Below, piece after piece: positions 4,344 to 46,883 of a stretch of DNA of 49,198 bases. The stretch comes from a bacterium (GTDB taxonomy: Bacteria > Patescibacteriota > Gracilibacteria > BD1-5 > UBA6164), in NCBI GenBank assembly GCA_041642635.1, contig JBEPWB010000001.1, positions 1 through 49,198 of the forward strand, in the 5' to 3' direction. A program made the translations under genes and the position numbers. Numbering within the stretch: position 1 is the first letter of the stretch; each line of letters begins with the position of its first letter. The notes under the pieces are model-generated. The model was not told the origin of the DNA. It searched no databases and saw nothing but the letters and a program-made list of their open reading frames with translations.

Positions 4344-4372
4344 AAAAAACATTTTGTAAAAAAATGTTTTTT
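4344..4372. terminator. Bidirectional hairpin terminator between convergent genes
   Basis: AAAAAACATTTT-gtaaa-AAAATGTTTTTT. It overlaps the last codons and stop of the helicase gene. Confidence 0.7.
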
Positions 4373-5628
4373 TATTTTTTCTTAGAATAGTGTCTTTTTT
4401 TGTTTGGGTTTGTTTTTGGTTTTTTCTTAAATCATTCTTTAAAATCAGTATATCAAAGAATTTTTCATTTTGGAATAATTTCTTTTTTATAACTATCATC
4501 ATCAATTACAGTTATTTTTTTTCAGATAGTTTTTTCTACATTTTTTAAATATTCTTTTTCGTGATCTATACAAAAAGTAATAGCTACTCATTTTTTTCAA
4601 GCTCTAGCTGTTCTTCAAATTCTATGAACATAATCTTCTGGTTCTAGTGGTATATTATAGTTTATAACACAAGACAATCAGTTAACATCCAATCATCTAG
4701 AAGCTATATCTGTCGCTACTAGTACTTTTATTTCTCAATCTTTTAAAGCTTTTAAAGCTCTTTGTCTAGCGTTTTGAGATCTGTTTCTATGAATATTATC
4801 AGCTTTGATTCAAGCAGTTTTTATATAATCTAAAACATATTCTGTATCATCTTTCGTCCTTACAAAAACAAGTATAGAATAAAATTCTTTTCTTTTTACT
4901 ATATTTTGTAGTAAATGTCTTCTATGGCTTGATTTAACATGATAAACTTGTTGGTTTATATTTTCTGTAGTTGATGCTACTTTATGAACTCTAACTTCTT
5001 CCTGACAATGCAATAAACTAGAAGCTAACTCTCTTATTTCAGTAGGCATTGTTGCAGAAAAAAACAATGTTTGTCTTTTTTCTGGAATTCTTTTCATTAT
5101 TTTTTTTATGTCTGGAAGAAATCACATATTAAGCATTTTATCAGCTTCATCTAAAACTAAATAATCAATATATGATAATTTAACTACTCATTGATTGATT
5201 AAATCTTCTAATCTTCAAGGTGTTGCTATCAAGATATCTATTCATTTTTCAATTGCTTTTATTTGATGAAAATCGTTAACACCTCAATATATAGTTGTAC
5301 TTTTAAGATTAACATTTGAACAATATAGTTTTAATGCTTCTCATATTTGAATAGCTAATTCTCTAGTTGGAGCTATAATTAGTCACTGCAACTTTCTTTT
5401 TATTTTTCATTCTTCTTCTAACTCTTTTCTTTCATTATAAAGACTTTGTAATATTGGTAGTACAAAAGCAAATGTTTTACCACTTCATGTTTGAGCACAT
5501 GCTAATATGTCTTTTCATTTTAAAGCTAGAGGTATAACTTTTTCTTGTATTTCTGTTGGAGTATCAAAACCTTCTCTCTCTAAAGCTTTTTGTAAAGGTC
5601 AAACAAGTCACAATTCATTAAATTTCAT
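4372..5628 (-). CDS. DEAD-box ATP-dependent RNA helicase (RhlE-like), 418 aa
   Basis: AQTGSGKT, PTRELA, DEAD, SAT and HRIGRTARAG in one frame with TGA=Gly, plus a basic C-terminal tail. ATG at 5628, TAA at 4372-4374. Confidence 0.9.
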
Positions 5629-5992: not shown

Positions 5993-7636
5993 CTAATTCT
6001 GATCTGGACAAGTTCACCACTGTGGTTGTAATGAAGATGAAAATATTGAATAAGTATCAAATCTGTCAGGTTTTGAACTTATATTACTAACACACCAATT
6101 TCTTAAATCTTGATTAAATGAATCTGAATAAGTAAACATTTCTGCCATATTAGTAACATTACTTGTATCCCATCATCCTATATCTCTATTAAACAAATCT
6201 GTACTAAAAAACATTCTTCTCATATAAACAACATTGCTTGTATCCCAACTTAATATATTTCCATTAAATGATTTATCATACATAAACAGACTATTCATAC
6301 TAGTAACATTACTTGTACAAGCTGTTTCTAACAAAGATTGATTTTCACGTATACTGTATAGTCAGTATGAATCATATGCAGTATAAGTAATTCAATTTAC
6401 TTCTCAATAATCTCATGGATTAGCTCAGTTACAAGTTATTGTAATACCATTAGGTGATAATTCAAAATTATCTGAATTTTCTCATCAAGTTGGCAACACA
6501 TAATCATTAAACTTAATATAAACATTTTTTGTATCATAAAAATTTTCATCTAAAAGAGCAACACTAGTATCAATCATAATGTTAAGGTCTTCTAAATTAT
6601 TAAATGTAACAAAAGCATTTCTTGGTCATATATTATTGTCAAAATATACAGTATTATAACTAAGATTTCAAGAGTTAAAGTTATAAATATAAAAAGATTG
6701 ACTATTATCGTTTCACAAAAAATACATAGCATCATTTTCAACCCATCAATATCAATCATTCCAATCTCAACAATTAAAAGCTTGATCATCACACCAATAT
6801 CAATTAGGATTATTTCACTCAAATGCCCAGACTCAATTAGATACATAATTATCAATAAAATCATTAGTATAAAGATTGTCTCATTTCCATTGATTAACTT
6901 CTTCTTCTATAATACATTCCTCATTTAAATTTATTTTTGCTGTTATAACTTCATCTTCATAAATCGTTGTTCATCAACAATCTGTTCAGTTACTTGAGTT
7001 TTGATTATTTTCATTTTCTATTATTTTTTGTTCTATTATTCATCATGAAAGTGTTTGTGGTCATTCTTTCCTTCTAAAGATTGCAGTATAATCATTACCA
7101 TCTGATAAGTCTATATCTTCTGTAGAGTTTTCTTGTACTGGTACATTTGTCACTGGTTCCATTAATACTCATAGAGAATCTCATATAACATACGGATATC
7201 TATTTTCATAATTCGCATATGTTGTTGGTACCAAATTATTATTAGAAATTAAATCATTCTCTAGTAACGCCATTAATTGAAATTTTGTTTTACTAGAGTT
7301 TGTTGTATATGTATAAAAAGTATCATCTAATGGGTCTTTTGCATTATTACTCACTCTTATATTATTTAATGTTCATGTTCATGAATATCATTGTATTAAA
7401 TAATTTGTTGTTCAACTTCATATATTTATTCCATTATCTGGTGATAATAGTACTCATTCTCTTGCTTGTTCTAGTTGCAATCATGTCCTTATTTGTCACA
7501 AGTCACTTATTCTTTTACTATCTCTTGAATCTCAACTAAATCATTGTAGTGAAATAAAAGCTATTGTTCATAGTATTGCTAGAATAGTAATTACTACTAT
7601 TAGCTATACTAGCGTAAAACCTTTTTTGTGTTGCAT
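5993..7636 (-). pseudogene. Type IV pilin-like protein with C-terminal DUF285/BspA-like repeats, interrupted by TAG at the Glu5 codon
   Basis: MQHKKG/FTLV-TAG-LIVVITILAIL prepilin N-terminus. The single in-frame stop is at 7604-7606, where the paralog has GAG. The remaining 537 codons are open to TAG 5993-5995. The C-terminus has repeats of the form NVTSM..LF / WDTSNV..M..MF / FNQDL..W.VSN. Confidence 0.75.
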
Positions 7637-7688
7637 AGGCAAATTTTTATATTTTAAAATATTATTGTTATATTTTTTTTAGTTTACA

Positions 7689-7750
7689 AAATAAACTCTA
7701 GTAGAAAATTTTACTAGAGTTTATTTAAAGAGTTTTTGAAAAAATTGCAA
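7689..7750 (-). promoter_or_regulatory. Conserved pilin upstream module: TTGCAA-17 nt-TAAATA promoter-like element overlapping a perfect 15 bp inverted repeat
   Basis: The inverted repeat is AAATAAACTCTAGTA / TACTAGAGTTTATTT (7689-7726), followed by a T-run on the minus strand. TTGCAA lies at 7745-7750. The whole module recurs at 30395-30456. Confidence 0.5.
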
Positions 7751-7772
7751 GTTTTTGTTTTATTGTTTTTTA

Positions 7773-7847
7773 TGGCAGTCCCACTAGGAATCGAACCTAG
7801 ATCGCAGGATTTGGAGTCCTGAATTCTAACCGTTGAACTATAGGACT
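7773..7847 (-). tRNA. trnW: tRNA-Trp (anticodon CCA), CCA end encoded
   Basis: 75 nt cloverleaf: acceptor AGTCCTA/TGGGACT, anticodon loop CTCCAAA, T-arm CTAGG-TTCGATT-CCTAG. Confidence 0.9.
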
Positions 7848-7876
7848 ATAAAGCTCTCTTTTTGAGAGAGCATTTT

Positions 7877-8662
7877 TTATATAGAAAATCTGTGAAAAGC
7901 AATAATATTACCTTCTCATACGAAAGTTTTAACTTTTACATTTGGATCCATAACAAAAGGTTGTTCTAATAGAGAAACTTCAGATTTGAATTTTCCCATT
8001 TTACCTTCGATAATTTTTAATAAAACATCGTCTGGTTTTCCTTCCATTTTTGGATCATTTTTCATGATTTCTAATTGAATTCCTTTTTCTTTTTCTAATG
8101 CTTCATCAGAAATTTCATCTGGAGATAAAAATTCTGGATTACTTGCAGTAACATGCATAGCAACTTGTCTAGCTTTTTCTGCATCAGTACCTTCTTTAGC
8201 AACGATTAATGCAGCTAATTTTCAGTTAGAGTGAACATATTCAGAAACAACATCACCTTCAACAATTTCATAATTAGAAATTTGTAAGTTTTCACCCATT
8301 TCCATAGCATAATTACTATTAATGAATTCTTGAGCAGCTTCTTTTGAATCAGAACCATTTTCTTTTAAAAATTCTACAACTTTATCAAGCATAGCTTTAA
8401 ATTTGTCAGAATTTGCTAAGAAATCTGTTTCACAAGAAACAGAAACGATATAAGCTTTATTACCTTCAGTAACAATTTTTATACCACCCTCAAAAGTGTC
8501 TCTGTCAGCTTTTTTTGCAGCTTTAGCTAAACCTTTTTTTCTTAATTCTTCAATAGCTTTTTCCATATCACCATCAGTTTCAGTAAGAGCTTTTTTACAT
8601 TCCATCATACCGATACCAGTCATTTCTCTTAATTCTTTTATTTGAGCAGCTGTAATTGCCAT
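7877..8662 (-). CDS. tsf: Elongation factor Ts, 261 aa
   Basis: N-terminal UBA-like MAITAAQIKELREMTGIGMMECKKAL. The two track ORFs join through TGA codons 8222-8224 and 7916-7918. Confidence 0.9.
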
Positions 8663-11524: not shown

Positions 11525-12655
11525 CTATACTTTTTCTTTTATTTTAACAAGCATTTTATCAAAAAAATCTCTAGTATCAAAACTATATTGAGTAATGCAT
11601 AAATCAGTTTTTAATAATCTTGGTCAAACTCTTCAAGAAAATAAAATATCATAATAATTTTTGTGATGCTTTAGCAAAACATTAACTCTCTTATATCATT
11701 TTGTATAAATCAAATCTTTTAAAAAAAATTGATCCGATTTAAACGAGCTAAAACGATAAAAACGATAATAATAGTGCAAAGACTTTTCTCTTGTAAATCA
11801 TTTTACTTTCAAAATCTTGTATATTTTATCTTGTTTTTGAGTTCTTGTAAGATTTTTATTTAATAGTACTTCAAAACAAGCATCATAATAAGGATTATAT
11901 TTTATTTCTGGCAAAAGTTTTCTTCAATAATAATATTCATTATATAAAGCAAATCATTCTTCTAGTTTCATATAATCAGAAAAACCATGAGTTGTTCCAT
12001 AATTTTTTATATTATTATACCTTCTGAAAAAATGAGTCATTTCGTGAAAGAATAATGTTACCAATTCCCTACTAGTGTAAGTTTTTTTTGTAGGAATAAC
12101 TAGGGTTCAAGCAGAATGAGACATAAAAGCATAAGAACCAAATTTATATTTCAATCAAGGAACTATCGTTTTAGAATATTCTAATAATTCTACTAATTCA
12201 TTTTTTGAAATTTCGTTGTAAGTTTGATTATCAGGTTCTATTATAATATTTTTTCAAATATCATTTTTACTTACTCAAAAAAAAGCTCTATTATAATAAT
12301 CATAATCCAGACCTGGATAAGATATTTTGTATTTTGGGTCTAATTTATTTGCTTCAAAATCATAAACATTTTTCAAAAAATCTATTTTTTTATAAATAAA
12401 ATCTATTTCTCAAATAAGTATTTTGTATTCATCAGAAGAAAAATTATCAATATTTTTTTTGATTTTATTATTTATTTTTTCTAACTTTAATTTTTGATTG
12501 TATAACTTTCACAAATAAATATACCTATAATCTCTTAAGTTTGGAATTTTTCCATATCAAAAAAATATAGGATTTTGAATAACATTAGATTTTTTTAGTG
12601 GTTTAATTAAATGAACATTGTTTTTTGAAATTTCTTTCAATATTTGAACAAACAT
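11525..12655 (-). CDS. MATCAP/DUF1704-like putative zinc metallo(carboxy)peptidase, paralog A, 376 aa
   Basis: HEMTH at 12032-12046, followed about 30 aa later by EEGFALYNE (a QEGLA-type motif whose Gly is a TGA codon). Confidence 0.55.
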
Positions 12656-19028: not shown

Positions 19029-21896
19029 ATGAAAAAATTAAAGTATTTAATATTTATAACATCATTCATTATACTTAGCTTTTTGTTAACTGCAAATAAT
19101 TCTTACGCTGATATTGTATCAAATTATCCTACTATATCTGAAACAATTAATGAATGAAACTCAAACTGGATTGATATTACAAATGTAGTATGAAATGATA
19201 CAAACAACTTTGCCCAAGTAAATATGTCAAACAATCCTGATAATTCTAATACATTAATTGTTAAATGATTTAATTTTAAATCGTTTAACATACCAGTATG
19301 AGCAACTATTAACTGAATAAAAGTAGATATAGAATGGAACTGAAGCAACGATAGAATTACTGATTCTGTTATACAATTAACAAAAAATGGTAAAGATCCA
19401 TATTGAAATAATCTAGCAAAATCAAGTTTTCAAATAACAAAAAATATATCAACTTATTGATCAGAAAATAATCTATGGTGAACAACATGGAGCGATACAG
19501 AAATAAAATCAGATAATTTTTGAGTATTAATAAAATACAATAAGGAAAAATGATGAACAAGAGATGCAAAAATATATAGAGTAAAAATAACTATTGATTT
19601 TACTAATCCAGAAATAGAAAGTCCACTTAATTTTAATATTATAAATGAAAATTATTGAAATAATTGATTTTGTTATGACTTTGAAGCAATAAACAATTCA
19701 ACTCAAGATATTACTGACTGGGAAATATGATTTAATATAAATTGAGCAAATATAATTAGTAATTATTGATGAAATTTTACTAATCTTTGATGATGAGAAT
19801 ATTCAATATCGTCTTCTTGAAATATAGACACATTTCCTGTATGAAAAAAATATACATTTTGATTATGTGCTGACAGCCAAGTTTGATACATATCAAATTT
19901 GACAACAAAAAATTACAAAAATGTATGACCATTAATGCCACAAGAATACAATTTAGAAAATAATTGATTGAATGTAAATATAACTAATGAGTCTAGCACA
20001 TCTTGAAGTTTTTGTAGAGAAATAGAACTAGTAAATAATTGAAATAAGACAATTAACTGATGGATATTAGATTTTGAATTAGACCAAAATTTATCTTCAA
20101 ACTATTGATGAAATTTTTCTAAAAATTCTATAACACACACAATAACTCCATTATCAAATAATAAAATAATTAATCCTGGTGAAACTTACACTCTATGATT
20201 TTGTAGTGAATGAACAAATTTAGACAATAATTGGTCGATAGAAACTTTAACATGAATACCAGGTTTTTGTTGAAAATATTATGAATGAACGCCAGAAAAT
20301 CCATTTGATATAATGAATTCGAAATTTTCAAGAGCAGATTTTGAAATAAATTTTGACTGGTGAACACTTAGCCCATCAGAAGAATTACCAAATGATAATT
20401 TTACAGCAAAATGGGAATGAAAATTTCAAGCAAATGAATCATGAGAATATAATTTTCGTACTAAATCAGATGACTGAATAAGATTATACATAAATAATAA
20501 TATTGTAATTGACCAATGGTTAAATCAGACACAAACAGAAGCAACTTGAAACATAAATCTAGATAAATGAAAAATATATAACATTAGAGTGGAATATTAT
20601 GAAAATTCTGGAACAGCTATGGCAGAATTAGAATGGAAAGAACCTGGTAATGAAGTATTTAGTAGATTAGATTGAAATAGTATATTTCACTGAGCTTGTC
20701 AATGAGGAGTAAGCACTTGATTAGAAACTATTTTCAATTGATGAAATTGACAAGCTGGTAATATGTTTGATATTGAGATATTAAATAATGATCTTATAAT
20801 AGATGCTTTATCTATAAATACTAATACTCAAAGTTCTACTCTTCGTGTATATTATAAACAGTGAAGTTATAGTTGATTTGAAAATTCTTCTGCGTGATGG
20901 ACTCTTTTATGAGATTTTCCATTTTCATGAGCTTGAGAATGAAATCCTACATATGTAGAAATAAATCCACTAACTCTAAATAAAAATACAAATTATTCAT
21001 TTTATGTTACTGAAGTATGAACAAAATGAATTTTATATACACAATGAACTATTGAATGAAACATATTTACTCAAGATAATTTTATAATTTTCAGAGAATG
21101 ATTATGAAATAGTTTTGAATTTAAAAACAATTTTTCTCCCCGTATATGGAATGGTATAATTCATTATACTGCAATAATTGACAAAACTCCACCAGCTATT
21201 GAGTACCAAAATATAAAAAATAATGATTTATTGCCAAATTGAGACAAACAAATTATAATAGATTATTTTGATAACTCTTGATTAGATTTATCTACAATAA
21301 ATTCATCACTTTCAAAATGGAATTGAAGCGATTGGTGAACAAATATATTAAATAATCACCAAATTAATTTTAGTAATGAAGCTAATCAATCAATATACAA
21401 TTTGTCACCACTTGGATATGGTAAATATAAATTTAATTTTAATATTGATGATAATTTTTGAAACTCTAATTCAAAAGATTTGATATTTTATATAGATGAA
21501 CCAAAATTCATCATATCTGATTCAAAAATAAATATATGAAATATAAGTAGTAATAATAAAAATAATTTTAGTTCAGATTTGTTATTAGTAGTACAAACTG
21601 TTTGAGCTGGATTTGATATACAAATGAATAAAGACTGAGAACTAAGTTATTCTGGATATGATATAACAGACTGGAATTGAGATAATTGATTTTGATATGA
21701 TTGAGAACCAATGACAAATACAATAAAAAAAATAAATAATAATCAACTAATAACATCTAATACAAAAAATATAAATACTAATTGAGAAAAAAACACTTAC
21801 ATTTATACTATAAAATTTTGAGCTAATATACCCGAGAATGTAGCGGCATGAAAATATTCTTGACTTATAGATTTTAAAATAATGTTTAATTATTAA
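19029..21896 (+). CDS. Large secreted multidomain surface protein (signal peptide, two CBM2-like beta-sandwich repeats, PA14 domain), 955 aa
   Basis: Translated codon by codon with no in-frame TAA/TAG. About 79 in-frame TGA versus about a dozen GGN (hand count). PA14 signature FTAKWEGKFQANESGEYNFRTKSDDGIRLYINN...YYENSGTAMAELEWKEPG at about 20394-20650. Two GFC...W...F...fGfC repeats at about 19650-20230. Confidence 0.75.
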
Positions 21897-21900
21897 ACAA

Positions 21901-21936
21901 AAAAAATACAGTTTTAATTAAAAAACTGTATTTTTT
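21901..21936 (+). terminator. Rho-independent terminator
   Basis: AAAAAATACAGTTTT-aatta-AAAACTGTATTTTTT. Confidence 0.7.
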
Positions 21937-22037
21937 TTGACATTTTGAAAATACATATGATAGAATACAACCGCAATTGAAAAGTTGAAGTAAAATTTCA
22001 CAAAAAATTTATTTATATTATATTTTAATGTCATACT

Positions 22038-22700
22038 ATGATAAAAACAAAAATAAAAAAAGCTTTTGCTGTTGCTTGAATTACAGCTATTGCAATGACA
22101 AATTTTGGTAACGCATTTGCAGCAACTAACATAGGTACTGCTGGTGTAGAATGAGATACTTCTTTTGAAACTAATGTTGTATGGGATGATAATTTTCCTG
22201 GTACTGCTACTTGAAGTGTAAATTGAATTGAAGTAAATGCAACTGTCTTACCTACTCTGAATATGAATATTTCAGCTTCAGAAATTAACCTTGGTAATTT
22301 GATTCCATGAGTACCTGCAACATGAAACATAGGAATCGAAGTTGGGACTAATGCTGCAAATGGTGTTACAATAACTGCTAGATCAAATAGTGGAGGTTTA
22401 GTGAATGCAAGCGATCCTTCTATAATAATTAATGATCTAAACAATAGTAGCTATACTTTTAAATCTGTTGCAAACGCTATTGATTCTACAATATCTTGAT
22501 TTGAAACAACTGGTGACTTAATAGAAACAGAAGTAAACAATAACACTACTGAACATTTAATTTATGAAACCAACAAACCTGAAAGACTTGATGAAGTTAA
22601 TGCTGATTTAGATTTTACTGTAACTACAGAAGTAGATGCAGAAATGATGGCATGAAACTACAAAGATTTAATAACATTTACAGTCACAGGTAATTTCTAA
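22038..22700 (+). CDS. Small secreted protein (220 aa), candidate WxL-like/CscB-like surface protein
   Basis: Signal peptide MIKTKIKKAFAVAGITAIAMTNFGNAFA. C-terminal motif AGNYKDLITFTVTGNF. The 137 aa minus-strand track ORF 22031..22444 is its antisense shadow. Confidence 0.65.
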
Positions 22701-22703
22701 CAC

Positions 22704-22737
22704 AAAAAATACTATTCTAAACATAGTATTTTTTTTT
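22704..22737 (+). terminator. Rho-independent terminator
   Basis: AAAAAATACTAT-tctaaac-ATAGTATTTTTT plus a T-run. Confidence 0.65.
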
Positions 22738-22792
22738 GATTTTCAAGTTTTTTTTTATAATATCTATCTGAATAAAAATAATTAAATAAAAA

Positions 22793-24217
22793 ATGAAAAA
22801 ATTAGTTATATTATTTAGTATTATAATATTTATGATAAATGTAAATATTACTAATGCTAATATAGATTTAGTAGTTTCCCCTATAAGATACGAAATACAA
22901 GTAGATCCATGAGAAACAATACAAAAAACTGCAAAACTTATAAATAAGTCCGATATTACATACAAGATTGAAACTTGAGCTTCTGATTTTGAATCTAAAG
23001 ACCAATATTGAAATCCGAGCTTTGTAAGAGTAAATGAGTTAGATAATCAAAATCAATGATTAGCAAGTTGGATAAATATTGATAATCCTTGATTTATAAT
23101 AGAACCGAATCAAGAAGTTGAAATAGTTTTTGATATAAATATTCCTCAAAATGCAACTCCTTGATGACATTATGCATGAGTTTTTTTCAAAACAGTATGA
23201 AGTAACAATAGTTTATGAAGTAACTTACAAATAAAAGTAGATTATTGAGTATTAATACTCTTGAATGTGAGTTGAGAAATAATAGATAATACGTCTGTTT
23301 GAGAACCACTTATTAATATACAAAATTCAGAAATAACTTTATTAGATCAAAATTGAGAAATTCAAAATAACAGAAAAAAAGATATTTGTAAATTTATTGA
23401 TTTTACAAGTAGTGATACAGACTGAAAATGTTTTGATACAGAGTACTTTAATAATATAGCAAGTACAATAATAAATAAATTTAAAGGAGAAAACAAATAT
23501 ATTGAGCAAGAAGAAGAGAATAACTCAGAAGAAACTATTTTTAAAACATGATCTCTAAAAAATGATGATAATTTTTACATAGAAATAGATATCCCTTTTC
23601 AAAATGAAGGAAATACTCATGTTAAACCGGAATGAAAAATTATTCTAAAAGATGAAGATTGAAATGAAATAAAATGAATATGAAAAGAAATAATAAAAGA
23701 TGATAATTGAATGATAACGTGAGAAAAAATAGTTGATTATCTACCTATAAATGACCAATGAGGTAACGTATTACCAAATACAAAAAGAATATATAAAAGT
23801 GAATGGAATGGTTTTCCATACGAAAATTATGATGAAGAATGAAAAAAAACAATAAGCTATTGGACACCTTGAGAATATTATACAAACAAAAATATTTCTA
23901 ATTTATGACCAATTTTCCCATGGCAAAGAGTTAATGAAAAATTAGAACAAAAAACAATTAGCGCGCTAATAAATCTATGATATTATAACTATGAATGAGA
24001 AAATATAGAATTTAATTCAGCAGAAAAATTTGAAGTTGACTATAAAGTGAAATATATTTGAATCAATCCTTATTTCTTTCTATTTTGATGAATTGTAATA
24101 ATTTTTTTAATATTTTTCTGGATAATTATAAGAAAAATAACAAGAAAAAAATGTGAAACATGTAAAAAAACTATAAAAAAAGATATGAAAATTTGTCCAT
24201 ATTGTTGAGCCAAATAA
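22793..24217 (+). CDS. Surface protein with DUF916/NEW3-like Ig-fold N-domain, C-terminal TM anchor and cytoplasmic zinc ribbon (474 aa), CscA-like
   Basis: Signal peptide. VSPIRYEIQVDPGETI..LINKSD....WINID...IIEPNQEVEIVFDINIPQNATPGGHYAGVFF. TM helix INPYFFLFGGIVIIFLIFFWIII. CETC-x13-CPYC at 24152-24205. Confidence 0.65.
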
Positions 24218-25770: not shown

Positions 25771-26889
25771 ATGCCAAAATACACTAAATATTTAGAAGAA
25801 TTAAAGAAAAAATTCAGTAAAAATTCAGATATAAAAATCAGCTCTAAAGAAAAAATAAATCTTTTAGAGCAATTATCAAATCTGCTTTCTTCTGGGATTC
25901 CTCTTTTAAATAGTTTTAAAATTATAATGTATCAAACAAAAAACAAAAAAATAAAAAGACTCCTAAAATCAATAATTGAAAATATAAACAAATGAGATTC
26001 TTTAAGTGAAATTTTTTCAAAGCATAGAAAAATATTTTGAATTTTTGATATTTCTATAGTAGAAATGTGAGAAGTTACATGAAAACTTTGAGATTCTATA
26101 GAAACAATAAAAACAAAAGAAGAAAAATCACAAGAATTAAAATCAAAAATAATCTGAGCATTGATTTATCCAATAGTTATAGTTTGTTTATCTATAATTA
26201 TGATTTGAGTTTTTATGATTTATGTAATTCCAAAAATCGAACAAATGTATGTTGATGCAAAAGTTAACTTACCTGGATTAACAGCATGGGTTTTGGACGC
26301 ATCTAATTTTATACAAGATAATTTAACTTATATAATTATTTGAATTATTGCATTTGTTTTTTGAGTTATAACTTTCAAAAAAAACAAATTCACAAAAATT
26401 TATTGGGATAATTTTATAATTAGAATACCTATTTTTTGAATTTTAATCAAGAAAAAAACTCTTTCATTATTTACCACAAGTTTATGAATATTATTAAAAA
26501 ACTGAGTAATAATCAACAAATCACTAGAAATAAGCTCAAAAGCACTTGATAACGATTATTATGAAAAAGAACTAAAAAGTATTAATTCAAGAGTAAGTAA
26601 ATGAATTGAATTAAGTGCACTTATGTGAGTTAATGAAATACAAAGTGGTAAAGAGAATTTTTTATTCCCCATAGAATTAGCCTCAGTTGTAAAAATCTGA
26701 GAAGAAACTTGAAATCTTGCAAATTTGCTATTAAAAATTTGAAAAAAAATGGAAAAAGAAATTGACGATATTGTAAAAAATATTCAAACAGCAATCGAGC
26801 CACTAGTTATAGTGATTGTTTGATGAATAATTTGAGTATTAATAATGGCTATAATGCTTCCATTTTTTAATATGGTAAATGTTGTATAA
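25771..26889 (+). CDS. pilC: Type IV pilus / type II secretion platform protein (PilC/GspF family), 372 aa
   Basis: LSNLLSSGIPLLNSF, duplicated GspF-type repeat, ELASVVKIGEETGNL, C-terminal EPLVIVIVGGIIGVLIMAIMLPFFNM. Confidence 0.88.
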
Positions 26890-29003: not shown

Positions 29004-30353
29004 TTAATTATTTTTAAAACATCTAACAGAAAAACCACGAGAACGTCAATTAAAGCTACTAGCATAAATATTATTAGAACTAAAATACATTTGATCTCAA
29101 TTACTTCAATTAGGTGTACTAGACCAATAACCTCAATAATTTCATCAACTAAAGTTACCAGTATTACTTTCACGTATTCATGAATAAGGTAATTTAAGAT
29201 CAACTTGCATACTTGCTCCATCTGATCACCATCAACCAGCTACTATAATATCTGCCCACTCATTTTTTGATGGCACATGATATCAACTAATACAAGGTCA
29301 TTGTCTTTGTTCATCTGTTCATAATCAACCATTATGTCACCATAAATTATCATCTTGGCTTTCTAACCAATCATCTAAACTAGAAAAATTACTATTCCAC
29401 ACAAATCAATAAGTATCATTATCTGCATTATAACTAGAATTTGGAATCTTAGTAGATTGTTGTGATGTATCTCAAGAAGGAAATCATTTATTTCTACCCC
29501 ATTGAAAATAATTTCAACTTGAAACTGTCCAATCTGTACTAGCTGTTGATGTTCATATGTTACATGAAGAAACAGTATATCAAGTTCAAGATCAAGCACA
29601 GACTATTATATCTTTTGTGTCACATCATGAATAAGTTGTAGATGCCACTTCTATATCTCATAAAGAAGTACAAATTGAATAAGGATTTATAACTTCTGAT
29701 TCATTATTTGAACCAATATTATTAATAGTTTCCTCAATTTTAACAACTAAATTACTTCATGAAGAAGTTGTAGAATTATCTTCTCTTGTAAATACTGGGA
29801 TATATTCTGTAGTATTGTTTTCTAAATCTATATCTGTTGCAGATTCTAATTGATGAACTGGGGTTTTTGTTGTTCATTCTAATAATGTTCAAACTGGGTC
29901 TCAAATAGTATATGCTTCTCTATTTTCATAATCCGCATATGTTTGTGGTATTATGTTATTATATGCTGTTTCTCAATTTTCTAGCATTGATACTAATTGG
30001 TATCTTGTTTGGTTTGAATTTGTAGTATATGTATAGTATTCATCATCACTTGGATCTTTTGCTTCACTTACTCTTAATTGATTAAGAACTCATGTTCCAG
30101 CATATCATTGATGAGTATATGTTGTTCATCAACTTCATACACTTATTGCTTCTGTCGGCATTGGAACAATTCATTCTCTTGCTTGTTCTATTTGTAATCC
30201 TGTTCTTATTTGTCACAAGTCACTTATTCTCTTACTATCTCTTGATTCTGATGAATATCATTGTAAAGAGATAAAAGCTATTGTTCACAAAATTGCCAAA
30301 ATAGTAATTACTACTATTAACTCTACTAGTGTAAAACCTTTATTGTTTTGCAT
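29004..30353 (-). CDS. Type IV pilin-like protein with C-terminal Fibrobacter succinogenes major paralogous (FISUMP) domain, 449 aa
   Basis: MQNNKG/FTLVELIVVITILAILGTIAF prepilin motif. C-terminus has NYFQWGRN...GYHVPSKNEW...LKLPYSGIR...GGYWSST...RGFSVRCFKN. No in-frame TAA/TAG. Confidence 0.8.
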
Positions 30354-30394
30354 AATATAAAGGGGTTAAATTTTATTCTTTTGTGAGTTTACAA

Positions 30395-30456
30395 AAATAA
30401 ACTCTAGTAGAAAATTCTACTAGAGTTTATTTAACTGTTTTTTTAAATTTTTGCAA
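30395..30456 (-). promoter_or_regulatory. Second copy of the conserved pilin upstream module
   Basis: 16 bp inverted repeat AAATAAACTCTAGTAG / CTACTAGAGTTTATTT (30395-30432), with TTGCAA at 30451-30456 and TAAATA 17 nt downstream. Near-identical to 7689-7750. Confidence 0.5.
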
Positions 30457-30534
30457 GTTTATTTTGTCTTTTTTGGCTTGACAAAGAGAGTATTTTATTT
30501 TTAGTTTAGTTATATTTTATTAAAATTATAATAT

Positions 30535-43847: not shown

Positions 43848-43895
43848 GGGTTTTGGTTTTAATAAATTAATAATATTTATTTAAGAATTTTTTTT

Positions 43896-43919
43896 AATAT
43901 TTAATATTTAATATTTAAT
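43896..43919. repeat. AATATTT heptamer tandem repeat, about 3.4 copies
   Basis: AATATTT AATATTT AATATTT AAT. Confidence 0.8.
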
Positions 43920-43922
43920 GAA

Positions 43923-44041
43923 GTCTTTCTCCTTACTTTTATAATTAAAAGTAACAAAACTTTTAGGGGTTTTCGAACTAGCTAGTAAATATTTGTTGCT
44001 AAAGAAAAGTAATCACTATCTCAACCCCTAAGACCCCTTCT
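43923..44041. ncRNA. Copy A of a structured ~120 nt element (candidate ncRNA or DNA-level site; strand unresolved)
   Basis: Hairpin TTACTTTT-ataatt-AAAAGTAA, then a 9 bp stem TTAGGGGTT...AACCCCTAA closing a ~45 nt AU-rich insert, then GACCCC. GC-enriched relative to its surroundings. Confidence 0.45.
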
Positions 44042-44133
44042 ACACTTCGATAATTAATTTTAAAGTTTATTTTGAAATTAATAAAAAAATTTTCTAATTT
44101 TTTTATATGAATTTTAATTTATTACTTCTATTA

Positions 44134-44262
44134 GAAAAGATGGGGTTTCAGGGGGTGAGACCGATAGTAGCCAGCTTTTAGTAAAGAAAAAATATAGCCA
44201 GCTGAAATTCGAACCCCCTGAGACTTTTGTTACTTTTGGTCACAAAAGTAAGGAGAGAAACT
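44134..44262. ncRNA. Copy B of the same element in inverted orientation
   Basis: The reverse complement reads TTACTTTT-gtgacc-AAAAGTAA, then a 9 bp stem TCAGGGGGT...ACCCCCTGA, then AACCCC. Stem differences relative to copy A are compensatory. Confidence 0.45.
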
Positions 44263-44356
44263 TTAATTATAAAAGTAAGAGACAGAATTCATATAAAAAG
44301 TAAATATAAAATATAATATAAAAAATTAAAACTAAAAATATAATTTTTCTATTTTT

Positions 44357-46050: not shown

Positions 46051-46084
46051 AAAAAATAACTAATTTTTAATTAGTTATTTTTTT
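46051..46084. terminator. Hairpin terminator downstream of the EAL gene, overlapping its stop codon
   Basis: AAAAAATAACTAATT-ttt-AATTAGTTATTTTTT. Confidence 0.65.
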
Positions 46085-46883
46085 AAATTTGATGTATTTT
46101 TTGATCTCAAATAATATAATTTCATTGAAAATAATCAAATCATAAATTTTTTGCAAATTCAAAAATTTCTTCAGATTCAATATGTTCTGCAACTAATTTT
46201 ATATCTTTTGACTGCAAAAATTTTAAATAATTTTCAAAATCTAAATAATCTTGTAATGAAAAATTTCAAAACTCAAACTCATTATCTACATTTTCAAATA
46301 AAAATTTATGTGAATAAAACATTTTTCTCAAATAAGTTCAATCAATTTTTACAGTTGAAATTTTTATATTATTTTGTAACAAATAATCTATTCTATCTGA
46401 ATTTGAATATCAAGAATATAAATCATCAATTGAAAGACCAAAACCAATTCTTATTAGAATTTTTAATTTTAATAAGAATACATCTGAAAAATTATCTTCA
46501 ATAAAATTAGTTTCTAATAATTCAAAATTTATATTTTCAGGATTAATTTTATAAAAAAGTAATAATCAATCAATAAATATTAAAAAATCTTCTTCCATAA
46601 TATCATATACGTCTAAATTTATATTAACTTTTTCTCAAGTTTTTAGTGACTTTTCAAATGCTCAAAGTGAAATCCTCTTAAACAATCAAAATGTAGATTT
46701 TGTACTATTTAATTTTTCCAAAAAATCTAAATGATCTATTCATCAACACTCTAATCTAAAAAGTATTTCATTTGAAAAAAAATCCATATTTTTATCAACA
46801 ATAGGTTCAAACTTTGCATAAAAATTATTTCAGACATTATATTTTATTTGATCGTCTACCTCGTATTTTTCATTAATCCCCAA
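46083..46883 (-). CDS. Stand-alone EAL-domain protein (putative c-di-GMP phosphodiesterase), 266 aa
   Basis: FEPIVD, EILFRLE, ELLETNF, SIDDLYSGYS, KIDGTYL, VAEHIESEE, DYFQGNYI. Probable TTG start at 46883 (first start-type codon after the upstream TAA). Confidence 0.72.

Follow-up and report, generated by a model that had tools for sequence, protein, structure and literature searches.

What are the two large prepilin-like genes in a 49,198-nucleotide (nt) stretch of Gracilibacteria DNA (contig JBEPWB010000001.1 of assembly GCA_041642635.1, positions 1 to 49,198; hereafter, the window), and do they encode pilins that carry separate binding domains? A first-pass annotation, made from the letters alone, had described these genes, called A and B here (Table 1), as modular type IV pilins of a Candidate Phyla Radiation (CPR) lineage, with a common N-terminal part fused to exchangeable adhesin-like C-terminal domains. 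Our analysis suggests, with a probability of about 0.75, that A and B are old paralogues in a family of modular type IV pilins that is specific to Gracilibacteria and whose C-terminal heads would be displayed for binding to host or prey cells. Of the two large pilin genes that had been announced, A is intact and B is interrupted by an in-frame TAG at the codon for the conserved Glu5 of pilins, which had been missed.

Genes of the window, whose GC content is 24%, were translated with genetic code 25 (UGA = Gly). Open reading frame (ORF) calling with table 11 returns neither A nor B; apart from the TAG of B, both minus-strand frames are broken only by UGA at positions where relatives carry Gly (e.g., DL*QIRT and W*TCP), and each gene contains 38 UGA codons. 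In the window, Gly is encoded chiefly by UGA (636 in 14,278 codons), with GGN being rarer than UGA in most genes. Out of ca. 44 genes, 36 end in TAA and 8, including lepA, end in TAG. The named matches of both genes belong to Candidatus Gracilibacteria, and the window sequence is present in a hypersaline-lake metagenome (run X1). Judged by its code and its best matches, the source organism is a code-25 CPR bacterium, in agreement with the lineage that had been proposed.

A and B Share a Predicted Pilin Module of About 195 Residues

The type IV prepilin identity of both products is borne out by profile searches. The N_methyl model (PF07963, cut-off 21.2 bits) scored 35.1 bits in A and, with Glu read at the TAG codon, 34.2 bits in B, while the scores of TIGR02532 (cut-off 16.3 bits) were 30.2 and 30.0 bits, respectively. 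In A, the leader MQNNKG with predicted cleavage before F(+1) is followed by E(+5) and the hydrophobic α1N segment (FTLVELIVVITILAILGTIAF).

In a BLASTP comparison, the two proteins align over 221 aa with 59% identity (E 6e-80), and no similarity is detected beyond this point, so the complete divergence of the C-terminal parts is confirmed. Identical residues number 53/60 (88%) over aa 1-60, 118/185 (64%) over aa 1-185 and 120/195 (61.5%) over aa 1-195; the earlier estimate by eye, two-thirds over ~185 aa, was thus close. The sequence blocks quoted in support of it are all present (SRDSKRISDLGQIRTGLQ.EQAREG, YTYTTNS, YENR, WDTSNV..M..MF, NYFQWGRN, GYHVPSKNEW and GFSVRCFKN), and the similarity extends far beyond the generic 25-aa pilin helix. 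The end of the shared part, at about aa 195, coincides with the C-terminus of a stand-alone relative, P0001 (201 aa, 55% identical to the module of A). These comparisons indicate that the shared ~195-aa part is a complete pilin module and not the helix alone.

At the DNA level, identity between A and B amounts to 82-92% over the first 140 nt, to 60-73% up to ca. +500, and falls to background after ca. +600. For codons 1-195, the Nei-Gojobori method gave synonymous (dS) and nonsynonymous (dN) divergences of 0.71 and 0.29, with dN/dS climbing from 0.04 (codons 1-30) to 0.74 (codons 131-195). Since the identity decays gradually and dS is ~0.7, the duplication that gave rise to A and B is old, and the alignments of DNA and protein from which a recombination breakpoint was to be mapped contain no mappable recent one. 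A recent domain swap, or gene conversion of the pilE/pilS kind, was rejected for the same reasons: there is no sharp breakpoint, the shared segment is not near-identical, and dS is 0.71.

The Head of A Is a Divergent FISUMP Domain by Profile Comparison

The C-terminal part of A had been attributed to the FISUMP family (Fib_succ_major/TIGR02145), which we take to be IPR011871. Hidden Markov model searches did not support this attribution at their cut-offs: Fib_succ_major (PF09603) scored 17.3 bits against a cut-off of 33.9, and TIGR02145 scored 23.9 bits against 41.65. Other comparisons did support it. The C-terminal part of A matched PF09603-carrying homologues in phmmer searches with E-values down to 5.5e-16. 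When A-type heads were compared by hhalign with a profile built from 20 proteins, 19 of them PF09603-annotated, the match had a probability of 99.9% (E 3.6e-33, 177 columns, 38% identity). The FISUMP motifs QWGRN, PC.sGyhVPs, LKLPysG.R, YWSS and GFSVRC.K are all aligned between the head of A and its homologues. Because the profile-profile comparison, the homologues and the motifs agree, we assign the head to FISUMP despite the sub-threshold scores; on this evidence, it is a divergent subfamily member of the DUF1566/Fib_succ_major group.

Structural comparisons were made through sequence and through models of relatives. A phmmer search with the head of A against PDB sequences gave no significant match, and a profile search in which the pilin module was included gave a single borderline match (E 0.0013) to 5aoh, labelled CotH, covering part of the head. 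The AlphaFold2 (AF2) model of relative P0121, used as a proxy for A, has a mean predicted local distance difference test (pLDDT) value of 69 and consists of helices at residues 10-31 and 36-59 followed by five strands; its residues 131-205, the counterpart of the linker of A, are modelled with pLDDT below 50.

The FISUMP/DUF1566 group is described as a surface-exposed ligand-binding scaffold of the C-type-lectin type (PMC5758913). Members of the same domain group (DUF1566/DUF823/Fib_succ_major) are targets of diversity-generating retroelements, an example being Legionella LdtA (Wu et al. 2018, PMC5758913). LdtA-type proteins are lipoproteins; a reverse transcriptase rewrites the variable region at their C-terminus, using a template repeat, whereas the 3′ end of gene A is not repeated anywhere in the window. 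The head of A was considered as a target of this kind and, within the limits of the window, rejected: no direct or inverted repeat of 29004-29600 is found in the window, and no reverse-transcriptase-like ORF was noticed among the ~20 code-25 ORFs scanned there.

B Combines DUF285 Repeats with an Interrupted Pilin Module

The DUF285 assignment of the C-terminal domain of B was upheld by the profile search, in which DUF285 (PF03382) scored 100.5 bits over aa 435-536 (6029..6334) against a cut-off of 25. The same part additionally matches the Mbov_0838 PARCEL lipoprotein and TIGR02167 models. Tandem ~26-residue repeats of the WDxSxVxxMxxMF type are visible, only ~4 in number, and the module has 566 homologues. 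In the source database, B is represented only by a remnant of 495 aa that starts at codon 53 (P0155), and the available AF2 model is of this remnant, i.e., of B minus its first 52 aa and with UGA mistranslated as Trp instead of Gly. Its mean pLDDT is 59; the DUF285 module is modelled with pLDDT ~96, the pilin part contains six β strands with pLDDT 60-90, and the middle region stays below 40. This middle region was covered by the window's own protein alone in the homologue search, has no Pfam or NCBIfam match, and showed no relation to the pilin+FISUMP profile by hhalign. A weak pairwise match between it and the head of A (E 0.002, obtained without composition correction) was dismissed.

The TAG codon replaces the Glu of the GFTLVE pilin motif, and B as encoded therefore fails the Glu(+5) signature; the leader layout is otherwise as in A. 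Within the family, conservation is highest at Glu5 (E13, invariant in 146 and in 100 sequences). Run X1 also yields a Logan contig of 7,511 nt (depth 13.8), assembled independently, that has zero differences from the window over 7499-7900, TAG included. All other pilin-like contigs (seven in X1 and all in X2, X3 and X4) have C at 7606, i.e., GAR = Glu. TAG being the terminator of 8 of the 44 window genes, we conclude that it is a genuine stop in the source genome, that B cannot be made as a pilin in the sequenced population, and that B is a recent pseudogene or switched-off copy. The remaining 536 codons of B are open downstream of the TAG; B was under purifying selection for most of its history (dN/dS ~0.4), and the TAG is recent.

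If the TAG came from a sequencing or assembly error, belonged to a minority allele, or were subject to readthrough, B would be functional and both pilins would be made. The long open frame after the TAG in a genome of 24% GC, together with the dN/dS value, can be taken in favor of this possibility. So can the material inspected, which consisted of contigs and not of reads, contigs being known to drop minority alleles and rare variants. In addition, two X1 Logan contigs meet inside the conserved 5′ region (7499-7517), and because of this break the TAG-bearing 5′ end is joined to the body of B only by the original assembly, a point that tells against the inactivation of B. On the other side, the independent assembly (~14x) has the same base and no alternative contig exists for the B copy, no suppressor tRNA is found in the window, TAG serves as a regular terminator there, and the affected residue is the one that the family conserves most. 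We therefore regard a functional B as quite unlikely.

Scaffolds and Heads Assort Independently across the Family

A phmmer search with P0001 against 1.84 billion cluster representatives retrieved 9,385 of them at E<=1e-3; at E<=1e-10, 1,847 remained. With few exceptions, the 150 best matches are 350-670 aa long, the alignment being limited to the first ~190 residues. Among 155 module-bearing proteins examined, a C-terminal extension of at least 150 aa is present in 136 and one of less than 60 aa in 14; many relatives of 120-200 aa were also found in the homologue search.

In a Pfam census of 100 members, the heads matched Laminin_G_3 (12 proteins), Fib_succ_major (5), Fibrinogen_C (4) and, once each, Lcl_C, BspA-type LRR_5, LCCL and DUF7483; most heads had no match, which we attribute in part to the many database entries in which UGA is translated as Trp. 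Coverage-filtered clustering resolved ~70 head types. A looser single-linkage clustering, which placed 111 of 137 heads in one cluster, was discarded as chaining, since only 17 of them match the head of A directly. A second pilin-DUF285 protein, P0407, was also found.

The FISUMP head of A is 48-53% identical to the heads of P0121, P0122 and P0123, the globular pilin parts of which have no detectable similarity to that of A. Conversely, the globular part of A is 44-50% identical to those of B, the head-less P0001, and P0275 and P0276, which carry other heads. These reciprocal identities show, at the level of sequence comparison, that scaffold and head assort independently and that the family is combinatorial; together with the census, they sustain the proposal of exchangeable modules.

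Several such genes may occur in one genome. In the metagenome-assembled genome GCA_028689115.1 (contig JAQTWV010000003.1, 8605..11200), two tandem pilin-FISUMP paralogues of 422 and 399 aa are flanked by obg and prfA-type housekeeping genes. In run X1, at least seven other contigs have the same pilin 5′ end (7454-7637). Because several of these contigs have depths of ~12-15, near that of the window contig (13.8), the source organism probably has further paralogues with other heads.

Proposed Function of the Modular Pilins

The domain layout, the homologies, the modularity across the family and the stop within B are shown by the comparisons above; a mode of action can be proposed by analogy with the Streptococcus sanguinis pilins PilB and PilC. 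Prepilin peptidase (PilD) would cut the module of A after Gly6, and the module would be built into a type IV filament by way of its hydrophobic N-terminal helix. Acting as a carrier, it would expose the head, most likely as a low-abundance pilin situated at the tip or close to it, and the head would bind structures on the surface of host or prey cells, probably glycans in the case of A. Adhesion at host contact is, by this analogy, a plausible role.

Several observations weigh against this interpretation, in addition to the sub-threshold scores of the head of A. Neither a prepilin peptidase (PilD) nor an assembly ATPase (PilB/PilT) is encoded in the 49-kb window, where a PilC/GspF-type platform gene (25771..26889, +; T2SSF 153.2 bits) is the sole gene of type IV filament machinery. 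None of the RNA-seq runs searched for the gene A locus holds it. Foldseek comparison of the P0121 and P0155 models with the PDB returned nothing below E 0.9, pilin matches having E ~4-5; the predicted lectin and pilin folds are thus without structural confirmation, and the models themselves are moderate or poor. Finally, most members of the scaffold family are long and might be major rather than minor subunits.

The last point leads to a different placement, in which the large proteins would be the major filament subunits and the Gracilibacteria pilus shaft would be coated with lectin-like heads over its full length. Apart from the dominance of long forms in the family (136/155), this would be consistent with the profile search that included the module, whose matches among solved structures, over the helix, were major pilins and GspG, with the lack of a short major pilin among the window genes, and with the view that a position in the filament body is possible if the linker is flexible (PMC8179133). 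Yet short stand-alone modules do exist (P0001, the 14 of 155 proteins with short extensions, and the many relatives of 120-200 aa), several paralogues with different heads per genome are what one would expect of accessory subunits, and all characterised modular pilins are minor (PMC8179133). We consider a head-coated shaft unlikely.

It is highly improbable that A and B are not pilus subunits at all, being instead pseudopilin-like or membrane-anchored surface proteins that reuse the prepilin signal, e.g., in a secretion or competence filament. Sub-threshold matches to GspG, GspH and ComG models were obtained, and CPR type IV filaments have also been proposed to act in DNA uptake. However, the equivalog scores are far under their cut-offs (27 bits against 88.85 for GspG), CPR surface biology centers on type IV pili according to the papers cited here, and what is conserved is a full globular pilin domain rather than the signal alone. 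The display of heads on type IV pili thus remains the interpretation that we favor.

A Conserved Block Precedes Both Genes

The DNA similarity between A and B sets in ~110 nt before the ATG and thus takes in a shared regulatory block, which the first-pass annotation had overlooked. This block contains a promoter-like motif and a hairpin (Table 1), the latter being a near-perfect 38-nt palindrome with a 17-bp stem, a 4-nt loop and a U tract, located 45-85 nt before the ATG. The folding free energy of the hairpin is -22.7 kcal/mol (z -7.4) for A and -16.7 kcal/mol (z -5.6) for B. At 83% identity, the upstream blocks exceed most of the coding sequence in conservation; the window contains only the two copies, with 0 expected by chance. 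Scanning 185,579 species genomes for the palindrome as an exact pattern retrieved only an unrelated Clostridium match, and Rfam models recognized only three tRNAs in the window, with no match at the hairpins. The hairpin could be an attenuator or stabiliser in the 5′ untranslated region, an operator, or the terminator of an upstream gene carried along in the duplication.

Together with the promoter-like motif and the hairpin, the initial ~180 nt of the coding sequence form a 5′ cassette with 83-87% nucleotide identity, the rest of the module having dS ~1. It is conceivable, if rather unlikely, that this conserved cassette may be a recombination handle for exchanging or silencing lectin-like heads among Gracilibacteria pilin paralogues, thereby setting which hosts can be attached to, with B as a reserve "off" copy. 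If true, this would be a pilus-based counterpart of the cassette switching of phage receptor-binding proteins.

Relation to Known Modular Pilins and Surface Proteins

Modular pilins were defined by Raynaud et al. 2021 (PMC8179133), with S. sanguinis PilB, its crystal structure and its role in adhesion as the starting point, as proteins with an N-terminal IPR012902 motif and an extra domain that is not specific to type IV pilus biology. Under this definition, A (N_methyl and FISUMP) and B (N_methyl and DUF285) are both modular pilins. The same survey distinguishes 264 architectures among a total of over 1,200 modular pilins, and CPR lineages supply many of the example proteins in its Figure 8. 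The two fusions had been thought undescribed, which is not the case: Dataset S1 of the survey contains IPR012902-IPR011871 (40 proteins, the fifth commonest modular pilin) as well as IPR012902-IPR005046 (9 proteins and multi-copy forms), IPR005046 being DUF285, i.e., PARCEL (PMC2996958). These entries have the same domain combinations as A and B and are counted there, none being characterised. The concept and both architectures were thus already catalogued, and A and B add members. They differ from the entries in that the head of A lies below the model cut-offs, so that A would go uncounted, and in that B has an extra orphan region of ~190 aa.

The closest parallels are S. sanguinis PilB, with a vWA head, and PilC, with a ConA-like lectin head (PMC8179133, PMC9934059). 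They likewise have a class III signal peptide and a pilin carrier to which a bulky C-terminal module unrelated to type IV pili is joined via a linker, and several such pilins occur per organism. In contrast, A and B carry FISUMP and DUF285 heads in place of vWA and LamG-type lectin domains, the pilin module is larger (~195 aa) and lacks cysteines, and the proteins come from a code-25 CPR organism, are known from sequence alone and include one inactivated copy. CofB of enterotoxigenic Escherichia coli, TcpB of Vibrio cholerae and GspK of type II secretion also combine a pilin module with extra domain(s) and are thought to be located at the tip (PMC8179133). Their extra domains do not belong to a general-purpose family and act in assembly initiation or in docking of secreted proteins; we found no sequence similarity between them and A or B.

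The PARCEL/DUF285 repeat of B is shared with Mycoplasma LppQ and LppC and with marine BspA-like "surface proteins" (Röske et al. 2010, PMC2996958). PARCEL proteins are displayed on the surface and form highly variable repertoires in which some copies are untargeted or pseudogenes (PMC2996958). They are anchored by a lipobox or a transmembrane segment, whereas the anchor of B would be a pilin module.

As to biological context, type IV pili of Saccharibacteria, which are CPR episymbionts, attach to the host bacterium (Xie et al. 2022, cited in PMC11452946), matching the setting proposed here. Saccharibacteria are a different phylum, and the account given in PMC11452946, as far as consulted, does not implicate pilins with modular heads. 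In papers on Gracilibacteria and Vampirococcus, type IV pilus genes are described as abundant, whereas modular pilins are not mentioned.

Features of the Locus and Other Observations in the Window

The coordinates of A, B and their parts are collected in Table 1.

Table 1. Parts of genes A and B and their upstream blocks, in window positions.
Feature	Position	Strand	Remarks
Gene A	29004..30353	-	Intact predicted modular type IV prepilin, 449 aa (code 25); 38 UGA = Gly; stop TAA
A aa 1-27, class III signal peptide	30273..30353	-	N_methyl and TIGR02532 above cut-off
A aa 1-195, predicted complete pilin module (helix and globular β part, no cysteines)	29769..30353	-	Common to B
A aa 196-253, Ser/Thr/Asn-rich linker and Cys-containing lead-in to head	29595..29768	-	No similarity to B
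A aa 254-449, divergent FISUMP (Fib_succ_major/TIGR02145) domain, putative lectin-like head	29007..29594	-	
Gene B	5993..7636	-	Paralogous predicted modular prepilin, 547 codons, one in-frame stop inside; ends in TAG
In-frame TAG, B codon 11	7604..7606	-	At the conserved pilin Glu5 position (GAG in A)
B aa 1-195, predicted pilin module paralogous to that of A	7052..7636	-	Sequence comparison with A
B aa 196-384, orphan Asn/Asp/Gly-rich middle region	6485..7051	-	Without detectable relatives
B aa 385-547, DUF285/PARCEL repeats and caps	5996..6484	-	N-cap SPNGITITC..., C-cap WCVSN...PQWGTCP
Upstream block of A	30394..30474	-	TTGCAA-N17-TAAATA promoter-like motif, then hairpin 30395-30432 and U tract
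Upstream block of B	7688..7768	-	Motif and hairpin 7689-7726; directly downstream of tRNA-Trp

The platform gene at 25771..26889 stands between genes for an Hsp20-like protein and a thioredoxin, with no PilB, PilT or PilD gene adjoining. A cluster of signal-peptide proteins lies at 19029..24217. It comprises a protein of 955 aa in which PA14 (97.8 bits) and CBM_2 (47.5 bits) domains were recognized (19029..21896, +), a 220-aa protein (22038..22700, +) and a 474-aa protein with a C-terminal membrane segment and a zinc ribbon (22793..24217, +), and is possibly another surface-adhesion locus. An EAL-domain protein (46083..46883, -; 78.6 bits) is a putative cyclic di-GMP phosphodiesterase in a reduced CPR genome. 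A 376-aa protein (11525..12655, -) gave a borderline match to the MATCAP metallopeptidase model (27.6 bits against a cut-off of 27).

Two paralogous DEAD-box helicase genes (..1441 and 4372..5628, both -) are located 4.2 kb apart, their DNA repeats having 72-76% identity. A gene-free gap of 500 nt (43848..44356) contains an inverted repeat with arms at 43921-43972 and 44212-44263 that are 81% complementary; Rfam returned no match for 43848-44356 even at E<=1.

Implications for Gracilibacteria

The concept of modular pilins, already established, is left unchanged by A and B. What they bring into view is a large, lineage-specific set of pilins in which one conserved carrier module appears to display heads of dozens of kinds, most of them lectin-like. 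Standard annotation mistranslates UGA, and the heads have diverged; domain censuses that rely on it therefore count too few such pilins. Gracilibacteria are uncultivated and depend on hosts, and A, B and the family to which they belong are candidate host-recognition proteins.

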